The notes under the pieces: generated by a model
Told to the model about the DNA's origin: nothing
Database searches by the model: none
What the model saw: only the letters and a program-made list of their open reading frames with translations
Program-made: the position numbers and the translations under genes
Source of the DNA: an uncultured Rhodomicrobium sp.
Lineage (GTDB): Bacteria; Pseudomonadota; Alphaproteobacteria; Rhizobiales; HXMU1428-3
DNA: 64,000 nt
Assembly (NCBI GenBank): GCA_964351785.1
Contig: CAYGPF010000004.1
Coordinates: 36,088 to 100,087, forward strand
Reading direction: 5' to 3'
Shown here: piece by piece, positions 10,632 to 56,272 of the stretch
Numbering within the stretch: position 1 is the first letter of the stretch
Layout of the letters: each line of letters begins with the position of its first letter

Positions 10632-10646
10632 TATCTCTCACGGCAA

Positions 10647-10675
10647 GAACAGGCTGCGCCTGTTCGCCTCTTTTT
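10647..10675 (+). terminator. purH terminator hairpin, also part of a dispersed repeat
   Basis: GAACAGGC-TGC-GCCTGTTC followed by GCCTCTTTTT. Confidence 0.8.
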
Positions 10676-10780
10676 GGTGCTTCAGATGCCCACTACGCAT
10701 CCGCATATTTGGTGCTTCAGATGCCCACCTAGCATCCGCATTCCTGTGCTTCAGATGCCCACCTAGCATCCGCAATTGCT
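10676..10780. repeat. Three tandem copies of a 35-bp repeat (GGTGCTTCAGATGCCCACCTAGCATCCGCAT...)
   Basis: Units start at 10676, 10711 and about 10745. Read directly from the sequence. Confidence 0.9.
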
Positions 10781-10923
10781 GCGCCATGTCGCAAGGCAAT
10801 AATTGCCTTACTCCTTCTTCTCAATTCTAAAACCCTGCGCTCATATCGACCTGATCATTTAGAAAACTGTGCCAGGTTATCTCTAACGGCAAGAACAGGC
10901 TGCGCCCCTGTTAGTTTCTTTTT

Positions 10924-10990
10924 GGTGCTTCAGATGCCCACCTAACATCCGCATATTTGGTGCTTCAGATGCCCACCTAGCAACCGGGCC
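10924..10990. repeat. Two more tandem copies of the same 35-bp repeat, preceded by a second copy of the purH-terminator-like hairpin (10893-10923)
   Basis: Units start at 10924 and 10959. The upstream flank ATCTCTAACGGCAAGAACAGGCTGCGCCCCTGTTAGTTTCTTTTT mirrors 10633-10675. Confidence 0.9.
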
Positions 10991-11072
10991 ATGAGCTGAT
11001 CTATATAATATGACGGTTTTGCGCTGCCGATACGTATAATTTATAATTATAAAAAACGATATTGGAGCTGAT

Positions 11073-52780: not shown

Positions 52781-53047
52781 ATGGCCAATACCAAATCGGC
52801 TAAAAAAGCCATTCGTAAAATTGACCGCAAGACGGTCGTGAATAAAAACCGGCGCAGCCGTATGCGTACTTTTATTCGCCGTGTTGAGGAAGCCATCGCT
52901 TCCGGTGATCAAGAAAGTGCAAAAACCGCGTTGATTGCAGCGCAACCTGAGATCGTACGCAGCGCTCAAAAAGGTATCCTGCATAAGAATACAGCCTCAC
53001 GTAAAATTTCTCGTCTGACAAAACGTGTGAAGGCTTTAAGCGCCTAA
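52781..53047 (+). CDS. rpsT: 30S ribosomal protein S20
   Basis: [13 protein letters not shown]... is typical of S20, and the length (88 aa) fits. Confidence 0.97.
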
Positions 53048-53092
53048 TTTATCTGATCAGGGGCTTGCACCTCAGACTTGTGATAATTTTGA

Positions 53093-53123
53093 AACAGCTG
53101 ACTTGCCTCAGCTGTTTTTTTTA
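53093..53123 (+). terminator. rpsT Rho-independent terminator
   Basis: AAACAGCTGA-CTTGCC-TCAGCTGTTT followed by TTTTT. Confidence 0.85.
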
Positions 53124-53454
53124 TGGGCCCGCCCTTGTTAAAATGTCCCTTGAATCAGCCTATTATCCCAGCCACTCTGGTGCTCTGCCGGGACGGGCCT
53201 GGTGGCTGAAATACACTAGCTGAAAAAAAATGTGCTGTTTCGGAAAAGCCGCTTGACAGGCCTTTTTTTGATCTCATTTTTTTGGCTTTTTAAAAAATCC
53301 ATTAATCCCAATATCTTGGATATGACTGATTGATGACGCTGCTGCTGATGGTTAATATTTCAGCAGTTTCGGCCTGCGCATATAATGGCTTCTGGTCAAC
53401 TTTTGACCCTTGCAAGGTGAGATGGGCCTGTGTATAGTCGGCCAAGTTGAGATG

Positions 53455-53470
53455 TTAACAATATCTTAAC
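53455..53470. promoter_or_regulatory. CtrA-type box TTAA-N7-TTAAC
   Basis: TTAACAATATCTTAAC read directly. It is the full consensus with correct 7-nt spacing, in the rpsT-dnaA spacer. Confidence 0.5.
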
Positions 53471-53910
53471 TCAAGCATTCATTCAGCAGTTTCGCGTCAA
53501 AATCAAATAGTTAGCACACGCTCGTCAGGAACATAACACACCCCTTTCGAGTGAGATCTATGCTTTACCTATTTTTTATTGGTATTTATTCGGCTGTTAC
53601 TTGTTTTTTATTAATTAGGCAAATAACACCCTGGAAAATAACTGATTATACAGGCCGATTAACTGCAGTTTATTGCTTTCTATATTTAAGAGGGTACTAT
53701 TTTATATCGTGTTTTATGGTGGCATTCGTCTCCTTTTCATCGCATTTGTGATTGGAACGGTGTCGCGTGTGAACCATCTGGTTTTGCCGCTGTTTCAGGG
53801 CTTTATGGTTAAATTATTTTTTCAACCTGACAAACTCTGGTTATGACATCGTTGGTCGATGTGAACATGATTAAGGCGCGAATCAACATCACCTTACCCC
53901 TCTGTAGAAT

Positions 53911-54128
53911 GCCGCCGGGGCCTATGCAAAAGCCACGGAGGCCGTGTCAGAAGCCGGGGCAGCAGATCTGTTTAACCGGTTAGATACATAAAAAAGCCAC
54001 CGGGGCCTATGTGACAAGGAGCACCGAGGGCTATGTTTAAAGAAAGCCACCGGAGCCTGTTGTGCAAACAAAGCCGCCGGGGCCTGTGTGTTAAGGAGCC
54101 GGAGAGTATGAAGCCGGTGGAGTGCTAG
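53911..54128. repeat. Degenerate tandem array A (about 8-9 units of 21-27 bp, core GCCRCCGGRGCCTRTG)
   Basis: Unit starts read at 53911, 53932, 53953, 53996, 54021, 54046, 54073, 54098 and 54113. Confidence 0.8.
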
Positions 54129-54181
54129 TTTTGTGGAGTGTCTGTTTTCAATGCCTCTCTGGCAACCTGAACAAGCCGGGG

Positions 54182-54349
54182 TCATGTAACGCAGCAAGCT
54201 GGTAGGCATGAAACACGGAAAGCTGAGAGACATGGAACGCGGCAAGCTGAGGTCATTTGAACGCAGCAAGTAGAGACATGCTAACATGGCAAATGGCGAG
54301 ACATGGAACACAGCAAGCTGAGAGACATGGCACGAGGCAAAAGCCAGAG
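54182..54349. repeat. Tandem array B (7 units of 22-25 bp, consensus ACATGGAACRCRGCAAGCTGAGAG)
   Basis: Unit starts read at 54182, 54206, 54230, 54254, 54276, 54301 and 54325. Confidence 0.85.
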
Positions 54350-54817
54350 TGATCTGGCGTCTGATCACAAAAACAATTTCGGCGGGTTGTTAGGGTACCC
54401 CGGCGGAAATATGCGGACAGTCTTTGGTTCTTTTGAATAAGAAATGGGACCGAAATCCGGGGGGCCCGGAATGTTCAATTGCCGGATCTGTTAAATACCG
54501 AACCAGGAGGCAAAACAATAAATTTCGTTGAATGCAACTTTTTCACATTCTCAAAGTGAGGAACATACAGCGGAAAAAATTAACTTTAGTACGGTCAGCG
54601 GCCTCACAGGGGTGTGCCCCAATGACTTGAAAACCAATCATCCAAAAGACGGTTTTCAAGGAATATTGGGACAGGCAGAAAACAACAAATTTGCTCACTT
54701 AATTGAGCCTTGTATTTTCAGAACCTTGTGAATGATCGGAGAAAGTAACTGAGGGTATAACGCCTGATCCAGGCGTTAATAATGATAATGGCTCATTGAA
54801 GGGCTTAATTAGTCGGG

Positions 54818-56272
54818 GTGACTATTGTGGAAAAAGACAAGGGAAAAGCGTGGGATCGCGTTGCAACGCGGCTGAGAGCCGAACTTGGAGAAGAAATTTT
54901 TACCAGCTGGTTTGGCCGGGTTGAATTTGAGAGCCTTGATCAGGGCGTATTAAAGCTATCCGTTCCAACAAGGTTTTTGCGAAAATGGCTGGTCTCTCAC
55001 TATTATGACCGGGTGATTACCGCTGCCACTTCTGAATTTGAAAAACTTGAAGAGGCAATTAAATCCATCGTGTTTTCGGTTCGCCAACCAGTGGCCGTGA
55101 AAGATACAGGGGAAGTCGGTGTTAGCGCCAAAACCTCCCAGCAACTTAACAACCAATTGGGCGCTCAAGCCTCAGCAGGTGTTTTTAGTGACGGCTCGCA
55201 TGAGAGTTTCACTGAATATGAGGGCTTTCAGGGCTCCCCGCTTGATAAGCGCTTTACATTTGAGAGCTTTGTAACAGGGGCTTCCAACCGGCTCGCCTTT
55301 GCCGCTGCGAAACAAGTTGCAGAACAGCTTGGCCAGAGCATGCGCTTTAACCCTTTATACATCCATTCAACTGTCGGCTTGGGCAAAACCCATCTGCTAC
55401 ACGCCATTGCCTGGGATGTAACCAAACGAATGCCGCAAGCCCGCGTGCTTTACCTGACAGCCGAGCGCTTCATGTACAGCTTTATTGACGCGCTGCGCAC
55501 CCGCGATGCCCTGGCCTTTAAAGATAAACTCAGAGGCATCGACATTCTGCTGATTGATGATATGGAATTTCTGCAAGGCAGAGCCACACAGCAGGAATTC
55601 GGCCACACGCTCAATTCACTCATAGACAGCAACAAGCAGGTGATTGTTGCCTCTGACCGGGCGCCGACCCAGCTTGAAAGCCTTGATGCGCGGATGCGCT
55701 CTCGGCTTGGCGGCGGCCTCGTGGTTGAAGTTGAGCAGCTTGATTTTGACCTCAGACTGCAGATTATCCGCCGCCGGGTGGAGGATAAAATTCAGGAAGA
55801 TCAGAACTTTGTTGTTCATGATGAAGTTGTCAGTTTTCTGGCCGAGCGACTTACAGAAAGCGGGCGCGAGCTGGACGGCGCCGTAAACCGGATTTATGCC
55901 AACTCGCAATTTACCAGTGAGCCAATCACTGTCACAGCGGTTGAACATATCATCCGGGATCTCATGTGCTCCAAAGAACCGCGCCGTATCAAAATTGATG
56001 ACATTTTACGGGTGATCTCGCGCCATTATGGCGTCACTCGCAGCGATATTCTTTCTGAACGGCGGAACCGCTCCATTGTGCTGCCGCGTCAGGTTGGCAT
56101 GTATCTGGCCAAACGGCTGACAGCCCGGTCCTTGCCAGAAATCGGCCGCCGGTTTGGCGGGCGGGATCACACCACGGTGCTGCACGCCATTCGCAAGATT
56201 GAAAAGGAAATTTCCGATAATCAGACCCTGCGGGAAGATCTCGGCATTCTGGAGCGTCTTTTGAAAGACTGA
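54818..56272 (+). CDS. dnaA: Chromosomal replication initiator protein
   Basis: Walker A GLGKTHLLHAI, box VII, and the C-terminal DNA-binding signature GGRDHTTVLHAIRKI. The start is GTG 54818 or GTG 54827. Confidence 0.97.
   Translation: MTIVEKDKGKAWDRVATRLRAELGEEIFTSWFGRVEFESLDQGVLKLSVPTRFLRKWLVSHYYDRVITAATSEFEKLEEAIKSIVFSVRQPVAVKDTGEVGVSAKTSQQLNNQLGAQASAGVFSDGSHESFTEYEGFQGSPLDKRFTFESFVTGASNRLAFAAAKQVAEQLGQSMRFNPLYIHSTVGLGKTHLLHAIAWDVTKRMPQARVLYLTAERFMYSFIDALRTRDALAFKDKLRGIDILLIDDMEFLQGRATQQEFGHTLNSLIDSNKQVIVASDRAPTQLESLDARMRSRLGGGLVVEVEQLDFDLRLQIIRRRVEDKIQEDQNFVVHDEVVSFLAERLTESGRELDGAVNRIYANSQFTSEPITVTAVEHIIRDLMCSKEPRRIKIDDILRVISRHYGVTRSDILSERRNRSIVLPRQVGMYLAKRLTARSLPEIGRRFGGRDHTTVLHAIRKIEKEISDNQTLREDLGILERLLKD

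Follow-up and report, generated by a model that had tools for sequence, protein, structure and literature searches.

The spacer between rpsT, which encodes ribosomal protein S20, and dnaA holds two adjoining tandem-repeat arrays in the genome of an uncultured marine Hyphomicrobiales bacterium, for which the nearest public DnaA proteins are 81 to 90% identical and come exclusively from metagenome-assembled genomes. We analyzed a 64-kb stretch of this genome (referred to here as the window), in which the gene order is rpsT, the spacer, and dnaA, followed by dnaN and recF (Table 1). At 1,770 nt, the spacer is by far the longest noncoding stretch of the window. The arrays, here called A and B, start 907 bp and end 469 bp upstream of the GTG start codon of dnaA, as an earlier note on this DNA had estimated (470 to 900 bp), and they sit between two conserved functional modules, in the freely evolving part of the spacer. 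The second-longest noncoding stretch of the window (10632 to 11072) bears tandem repeats too, so such arrays look more like a tendency of this genome than something peculiar to dnaA.

Table 1. Features of the rpsT-dnaA region, in window coordinates
Feature	Position	Strand	Basis and remarks
rpsT (ribosomal protein S20), left gene of the spacer	52781-53047	+	ORF; PF01649; synteny with dnaA in 126 related loci
rpsT intrinsic terminator	53091-53118	+	11-bp stem, then T run; terminator scan; aligned in 8 relatives
Promoter-like element P2	53410-53438	+	The invariant string TGTGTATAGT holds TTGCAA and, after 17 nt, TATAGT
AT-rich stretch containing short direct repeats rich in T	53550-53850		Not conserved in relatives
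Array A	53911-54096	+	Four units with exact core (53911, 53996, 54046, 54073), two degenerate units (53931, 54020)
Junction segment between the arrays	54097-54173	+	AGCCGG-type fragments (54097, 54112), 16-nt tandem duplication, unique sequence
Array B	54174-54341	+	About 7 units of 17 to 30 bp; consensus AGCTGAGAGACATGGAACRCRGCA
Inverted copy of the array A core, CCGCCGGGG	54398-54406	-	Beyond array B; inverted-repeat pair
Abundant structured RNA, about 175 nt	54514-54688	+ (inferred)	Metatranscriptome contig; fold
dnaA-adjacent block	54725-54817	+	AGTAAC..GAGGGTAT, two small hairpins, then TCGGGGTGACTATTGTG
dnaA	54818-56272	+	GTG start at 54818; DnaA_N, Bac_DnaA, and Bac_DnaA_C domains

Array A consists of units of 21 to 27 bp with A-rich tails. 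Its 13-nt core, GCCRCCGGRGCCT, has four exact copies, all within the array and none elsewhere in the 64 kb, against an expected count of 0.00 from 100 shuffles. A repeat search placed five copies in register at 61 to 85% identity; TRF made no call for this array, even at a score of 30. Two stretches interrupt the repeats, one of 43 nt without repeat character (53952 to 53994) and one of 62 nt (54112 to 54173), and the remaining candidate units (at 53952, 54097, and 54112) are mere AGCCGG-type fragments. Thus, the earlier description of 8 to 9 contiguous units holds in part: the repeats are real, with four good and two degenerate units, but the array is loose and broken by unique sequence, so that the number was generous and the contiguity did not stand. 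The junction segment contains its own small repeat, a 16-nt tandem duplication of GTGGAGTGYYWGTTTT at 54117 to 54148. Among the four good units, the core varies at two transition sites only, whereas the tails differ in both sequence and length. Selection on a site or on a small hairpin would give such a pattern, in which the core is better kept than the tails; slippage within the A-rich tails could be an alternative source of the same contrast. The inverted core copy reported to the right of array B is indeed present on the minus strand, and a second, partial inverted copy lies immediately to its left, around 54384 to 54390. The 9-mer of the inverted core occurs four times in the window (0.67 expected).

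For array B, TRF reported a repeat from 54183 to 54340 with a period of 24, 6.6 copies, 69% matches, 7% indels, and a score of 123, which fully confirms the head-to-tail array of about seven 24-bp units that had been described. Exactly as stated earlier, 4 of 24 positions distinguish the unit at 54230 from that at 54301, and the consensus is found three times when up to 3 mismatches are allowed, compared to zero times in shuffles. Start-to-start spacing of units ranges from 15 to 64 bp overall and from 15 to 30 bp where the units are contiguous. The first unit of array B, at 54174, has an A-like head, AGCCGGGG. This chimeric look, and the fact that all units start with AGCC or AGCT, raised the idea that A and B are one diverged family; we rejected it, given that pairwise scores between A and B units show no significant similarity. 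An ORF of 148 aa exists on the minus strand (53922 to 54368). It has no Pfam match above any cutoff and is not called as a gene in the public assembly, which bears out its earlier dismissal as spurious, and a coding repeat protein was likewise rejected because the ORF belongs to no family and indels between units break the reading frame. The plus strand of the arrays is strongly G and purine rich (GC skew, +0.19), and this composition would leave few stop codons on the complementary strand.

Direct repeats of about 24 bp near an initiator gene, with an AT-rich stretch alongside, invite a reading as iterons or a chromosomal origin, that is, as initiator-binding repeats serving replication initiation or DnaA titration, and the earlier note had proposed an iteron-like binding platform. 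However, neither the 1,770-nt spacer nor any unit contains a DnaA box within one mismatch of TTATCCACA, and the density of boxes with two mismatches is at the background level (3.4 per kb in the spacer versus 2.7 per kb in the window). Cumulative GC skew rises steadily and monotonically over the 64 kb, with no switch of sign. There is no Rep-type initiator gene, DnaA being the only initiator nearby. With no DnaA box and no skew switch, the arrays are neither oriC nor an iteron set. Furthermore, identity between units is low (69%), contiguous units are irregularly spaced, copy number varies, and nothing in the arrays is conserved in relatives whose DnaA is 81 to 90% identical. We regard the iteron or origin reading as largely refuted and its residual probability as minimal; the arrays are not DnaA-binding sites, iterons, or a replication origin. 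A motif scan of the units for CtrA, CcrM (GANTC), ParB (parS), alphaproteobacterial LexA, and IHF motifs was negative for each, and parS and LexA sites are absent from the whole spacer. Specific protein binding to the arrays is thus unsupported by any motif for which we searched.

The conserved parts of the spacer lie to either side of the arrays. On the left, the stems of the rpsT terminator differ in sequence among eight aligned relatives while complementarity, judged by eye, is kept. P2, a putative promoter, is followed by a stem-loop (53449 to 53478) that is conserved in position and that contains the sole perfect TTAA-N7-TTAA site of the spacer (53455 to 53469), 440 nt upstream of the arrays; the site itself is not conserved in the relatives L002 or L035. 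Conservation of P2 extends far beyond the window's clade. Of 173 loci, 92 carry the string TGTRTATAG, nearly always upstream of dnaA, and in outgroups it is found about 270 nt upstream of a rhodanese-domain gene, so that P2 is probably the old promoter of a rhodanese-dnaA transcript. On the right, an identical 175-nt contig (Table 1) was assembled from two DNase-treated metatranscriptomes, in which nothing else of 23.6 kb was detected. Its fold z-scores are -4.0 for the plus and -2.6 for the minus strand, a candidate extended -10 element (TGtTAAATA, 54490 to 54498) precedes it, and a terminator-like hairpin (54693 to 54708) follows it. The RNA could be an sRNA or, alternatively, the 5' part of the dnaA leader after termination or processing. 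The dnaA-adjacent block, the last ~95 nt before the gene, is conserved in 13 of 13 aligned sequences from 12 lineages; RNAalifold support for its hairpins is weak, and the alignment is poor.

A terminator scan of the plus strand found no terminator-like site between 53119 and 54692, and the arrays may therefore be transcribed from the upstream promoter, within a long dnaA leader. This raises the question of an RNA-level element: a leader or noncoding RNA of >1.3 kb, started from the conserved upstream promoter, in which the G-rich GGA and GGAG motifs of the arrays would act as a sponge for a protein or sRNA or would protect the leader from Rho. Given what is established about Rho rut sites, a strand rich in G and purines is the expected look of a long untranslated leader that must escape Rho, and seven GGAG motifs lie in array A and the junction segment (53937 to 54140). 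It is also consistent with such an element that P2 and the 5' stem-loop have been conserved beyond the clade despite loss of the downstream rhodanese gene. Yet, the two metatranscriptomes that contain the 175-nt RNA show no RNA contig over the arrays, at very low depth; the plus strand of the arrays folds no better than shuffles (z = -1.07), Rfam has no match, and the units are not conserved between species. On balance, we think an RNA-level function improbable.

The minus strand suggests another possibility, in which the A units form a weak terminator stack that insulates rpsT by stopping antisense or divergent transcription. Read on this strand, every A unit shows a small GC hairpin with a T run after it. 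The terminator scan found 10 terminator-like sites in all where 2.4 ± 1.7 were expected, and four of these are on the minus strand, in the arrays or at their right edge (54008 to 53994, 53946 to 53934, 54358 to 54343, and 54368 to 54349); the minus-strand fold is modestly better than that of shuffles (z = -2.41). The stems, however, have only 5 to 6 pairs, G-U pairs included, and array B units lack the form of a hairpin with a T run. No minus-strand promoter or RNA is known downstream, and the excess of sites simply follows from the repetition of one motif. An insulator is, in our estimate, very unlikely.

We also considered whether the block could be the remnant of a mobile element (a MITE or an insertion sequence) or of a decayed repeat-containing gene. 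The inverted 9-mer lies in 20-nt arms, 75% complementary, that bracket the block from 53901 to 54417, and the 148-aa ORF spans this block. Nevertheless, the block has no further copies in the window, and in 10 of 11 DNA runs, there were no partly matching contigs on the arrays that would point to other loci; in run X18, the exception, three contigs fit in part, and one of these touches the arrays. Searches of plasmid, phage, and viral-contig collections returned no relevant match to the arrays, and the possibility of a match to a known mobile-element remnant found no support there. A degenerate two-core pattern did hit viral contigs, with single matches in 18 of 19 contigs, which we take for chance or coding-repeat (collagen-like Pro-Gly) matches. 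As for a decayed gene, the ORF has no Pfam family and a frame broken by indels, and tblastn found no remnant in the window's clade of the rhodanese gene that most relatives carry, which led us to reject this gene as the source of the arrays. A remnant of either kind is, in our estimate, highly improbable. Rfam gave nothing for the window at the gathering score or, on the plus strand, at an E value of ≤10, and likewise nothing for 21 related loci, and a literature search returned no paper on such arrays upstream of dnaA. Taken with the plasmid, phage, and viral searches, these results agree with the earlier statement that no described element matches the repeats.

The order of rpsT and dnaA is kept in 126 related loci, 89 of which have a rhodanese-domain gene between the two; the median interval is 1,153 nt, and the rhodanese gene occupies this position in 109 outgroup loci. 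The clade of the window comprises 12 loci from about 10 lineages, in which the spacer is 1,251 to 3,033 nt of noncoding DNA with no conserved ORF. Tandem arrays occur in the spacer in 10 of these 12 loci versus 5 of 114 outgroup loci. The outgroup arrays are confined to loci with the rhodanese gene (5 of 89), compared to 0 of 25 for the other loci without it. The arrays of the clade have periods of 15 to 80 bp, and their unit sequences are unrelated from lineage to lineage. Profile HMMs of the A and B units, searched against about 1.3 Mb from 160+ related loci and the spacers of sister lineages, matched only the window's own units at an E value of ≤13. The units have no second locus in the window and are absent from about 170 related loci, including all sister lineages with DnaA 88 to 90% identical (found by protein search and contig look-ups). 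A scan of JGI metagenomes added only one further member of the clade. Sensitive blastn against relatives aligned only 53077 to 53473 and small pieces near dnaA.

Other observations point to rapid turnover of the spacer. In one sister lineage, contigs that share an identical DnaA protein have spacers of 2,100, 2,842, and 2,994 nt. The arrays of loci L004 and L005 are visible amplifications of a 16-nt segment that is single copy in L007 and L008. An apparent sharing of an "AAGCC..GG" core between array A and the arrays of L003 and L008 was dropped when the profile search gave it no support. Independent arrays recur in almost all sister lineages, and this could be a sign of selection for repetitiveness as such, beyond mere tolerance of repeats.

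Within the species, the arrays differ between very close strains. The species is present in biofilm, seawater, biofloc, plastic, marsh, and aquaculture metagenomes, and arrays were found in every population seen; the populations compared are at least 99% identical in the flanks. One contig in public data matches the window exactly. A second strain shares 99.8% identity and lacks indels from 54056 onward, but its assembly breaks inside array A. In the run from that strain (X3), we detected a 3- to 4-fold excess of word depth and branching unitigs and contigs at 54005 to 54095, which, together with the X7 contig described next, we read as an expansion by at least three A units. Copy-number variants of array A in other populations are located at 54024 to 54095: a contig from run X7 jumps back from 54095 to 54024 and adds 7 letters, corresponding to at least three more A units, and in runs X11 and X12, the last A unit is a different, chimeric one, consistent with an array shorter by one unit. 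Eight variants are clustered between 54160 and 54335 in array B, and these contigs carry none in their flanks. One of the changes, 54257 T>G together with the loss of 1 nt at 54259, gives the unit at 54245 the sequence of the version at 54179 and looks like gene conversion between units. The source samples (X1 and X2) show a single allele, so the variation is between populations and is not rapid switching within one. These variants were read from short Logan unitigs at 2 to 10× depth rather than from array-spanning reads.

The persistence of the arrays across populations bears on a DNA-level platform, in which the cores would be putative sites for a lineage-specific transcription factor or nucleoid protein and, from about -140 to -600, would control the promoter of the 175-nt RNA or the dnaA leader. 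Arrays in all populations of the species, a core that stays exact in four units while the tails drift, the inverted core copy at 54398, and the end of the arrays about 150 nt upstream of the 5' end of the abundant RNA speak for such a platform. Set against this are the lack of any DnaA, CtrA, parS, LexA, or GANTC motif in the units and an irregular spacing that does not keep helical phase. Relatives with DnaA 81 to 90% identical do not have the units, the copy number of the units is free to vary, and no candidate regulator gene lies beside the arrays. We judge a DNA-level platform unlikely, and a regulatory role for the arrays is not supported.

We conclude that arrays A and B are probably a copy-number-variable minisatellite (a variable-number tandem repeat [VNTR] locus) restricted to this species. 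What we found is head-to-tail repetition beyond chance, copy-number differences between strains, no kept reading frame, and rapid turnover. The minisatellite alternative that the earlier note had offered beside its iteron-like platform is therefore the one that fared well: the units are species specific, copy number and sequence vary at ≥99% identity, and sister lineages have unrelated arrays in the same spacer. Local tandem duplication would have produced the arrays, which would go on changing through slippage during replication, through unequal recombination, and through gene conversion from one unit to another. The host DNA is a long, weakly constrained spacer that would have lost its coding constraint; it lies where most relatives have the rhodanese gene and is bounded by what appears to be an ancient promoter about 400 nt downstream of rpsT and by the dnaA leader. 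Under this model, the arrays would be resized and homogenized between strains and replaced over the time that separates species. They are probably carried passively and would affect, at most, the length and composition of the leader or upstream region. We infer neutrality, but we do not call it certain, because the A core and its inverted copy are kept, the arrays are present in every population seen, arrays recur across the clade, and the plus strand is G rich.

There is some room, in our view not much, for the idea that, in this clade, the DNA from the conserved promoter to dnaA has turned into a long transcribed leader in which lineage-specific arrays have repeatedly been selected as a tunable element. 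If this were true, the arrays could be binding repeats for a protein or RNA, a spacer that counters Rho, or a rheostat based on length; the array A core and its inverted copy would be functional sites; and changes in copy number would adjust the supply of DnaA, and hence replication initiation, between populations. As found, the arrays matter little. They are one more intergenic VNTR locus, at most a strain-typing marker for an uncultured marine biofilm bacterium, in a spacer that breaks short-read assemblies, as happened in one public run. More interesting than the repeats is their context, in which a clade has replaced the rhodanese gene with 1.25 to 3 kb of fast-evolving, repeat-prone noncoding DNA, with an ancient, putative promoter kept intact and an abundant, structured, unannotated RNA just before dnaA. 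To our knowledge, dnaA control has been little studied in Hyphomicrobiales, and if the arrays or the 175-nt RNA affect dnaA expression, they would provide an entry to the tuning of replication initiation in this group.

Several known systems share parts of this organization. The iterons of RK2, P1, pPS10, and Vibrio chromosome 2 are likewise direct repeats of ~17 to 24 bp with an initiator gene and an AT-rich stretch near them. True iterons, however, are near identical, regularly phased, and bound by a co-encoded Rep protein at an origin with DnaA boxes, whereas the units described here are 60 to 85% alike, irregularly spaced, and strain variable, with no DnaA box or skew switch, and the neighboring initiator is DnaA itself. 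Clusters of DnaA boxes, such as those of oriC, datA, DARS, and autoregulated dnaA promoters, are comparable in the case of a position upstream of dnaA but not in content, given that this spacer lacks any 9-mer within one mismatch of the box. Sponge RNAs of the CsrB/RsmZ type resemble the arrays in that one strand is rich in purines and carries several GGA or GGAG motifs at fairly even intervals; they differ in that the arrays have no Rfam match, significant plus-strand structure, RNA contig at the low depth available, or conservation between species. Short direct repeats in a row also recall CRISPR arrays. Here, the repeats are degenerate, and units are contiguous or split by irregular stretches rather than by unique spacers of constant length, in line with the earlier judgment that this is not a CRISPR array.

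The closest parallels are intergenic VNTR loci of bacteria, such as the MIRU-VNTR loci of Mycobacterium tuberculosis and the MLVA loci of Xanthomonas and Brucella. Arrays A and B share with these loci, whose head-to-tail units fall in a range of 15 to 80 bp, a place in noncoding DNA, degenerate units, and copy numbers that differ between very close strains; exchange between units would homogenize them, with no function required. Unlike the dispersed MIRU family, the units appear, from the 64-kb window, to form a single-locus, species-specific family. Two further differences from known VNTR loci are the host, an uncultured marine member of the Hyphomicrobiales, and the behavior of the spacer, since the same spacer has yielded unrelated arrays in almost every sister lineage.

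The 1,770-nt spacer between rpsT and dnaA contains a 175-nt segment that is equal to an identical contig of that length in two marsh metatranscriptomes; across the rest of the surrounding 23.6 kb, rpsT and dnaA included, no RNA was detected in the same two data sets. The transcript has a predicted fold of three hairpins (z = -4.0), has no match in Rfam, and ends 130 nt 5' of dnaA, and it is a candidate either for a new sRNA or for a terminated or processed leader of dnaA. A box within it, GGTCAGYGGCCTCAC (approximately 54598-54612), is also present in three related loci (L189, L001, and L191). CCTGTGGCCTCAC is present in L002, L035, L005, L008, and L085, and near-variants of it occur in L004 and L007. 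Two of these loci, L008 and L085, share a conserved mid-spacer block without an Rfam match, which may be another noncoding RNA.

Between the RNA and dnaA lies a block that is conserved in 13 of 13 aligned sequences representing 12 lineages (alignments A3 and A4 of the dnaA-adjoining region). Its layout runs from AGTAAC..GAGGGTAT through two small hairpins, whose stem sequences vary by lineage, to TCGGGGTGACTATTGTG. The block may serve as a leader or as a proximal promoter. The true start of dnaA is ambiguous because two GTG codons, separated by 9 nt, share the reading frame.

Features in the window and in related rpsT-dnaA loci (L-numbers); plain coordinates refer to the window.
Feature	Location	Description
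Second intergenic repeat system	10635-10990	
Promoter-like element	53408-53441	CTTGMWNNG, ~13 nt, then TGTGTATAGTC; extreme conservation (window; L002-L008, L034-L161)
CtrA-type site	53455-53469	TTAACAATATCTTAA, perfect; ~17 nt past the conserved -10 of the promoter-like element
175-nt RNA	54514-54688	+ strand (inferred)
dnaA-adjoining block	54725-54817	
Conserved mid-spacer block	L008:3440-3540; L085:2020-2120	..CATAGAGGGTAAT..GCGGAAGGGGGAAC..TATCTGAAT..GGCTTTGCCA..
Rhodanese-domain gene	L013:4464-4883 (example)	L010-L017 and 100 other loci

Spacer length varies even among sister loci that encode the same DnaA protein (P0001), measuring 2,100 nt in L184, 2,842 nt in L185 and L187, and 2,994 nt in L186. 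A segment of ~870 nt in L185 and L187 corresponds to ~130 nt at the same place in L184; this difference is a large indel polymorphism and not a tandem repeat. Elsewhere, in the stretch 5' of dnaA, a 16-nt segment that immediately follows a terminator-like hairpin is amplified 6.8× in L005 (4776-4885) and 4.8× in L004 (4788-4865), versus one copy of the homologous segment in each of L007 and L008. The amplifications may reflect either parallel events at the same spot or a common origin. The second intergenic repeat system of the window comprises a terminator-like hairpin, AACAGGCTGCGCCTGTT, followed by TTTGGTGCTTCAGATGCCCACCTAGCATCCGCA, a 34-nt unit able to form a hairpin, in three copies, and the module is repeated ~245 nt further on with two unit copies.

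The promoter-like string downstream of rpsT is carried by 92 of 173 loci, in nearly all of which it lies 5' of dnaA, and it is followed by a 5' stem-loop of conserved position. Its invariant TGTGTATAG differs from a DnaA box at two positions. The CtrA-type site beyond it, one of two perfect sites in the whole 64 kb, has no conserved counterpart in either L002 or L035. Neither the window's clade nor a second outgroup set, which includes loci labeled Rhodomicrobium, has the rhodanese-domain gene or any remnant of it. Most Methyloligellaceae and Methyloceanibacter-like relatives encode this protein of ~140 amino acids between rpsT and dnaA, and in outgroups the promoter-like element sits ahead of the rhodanese gene.
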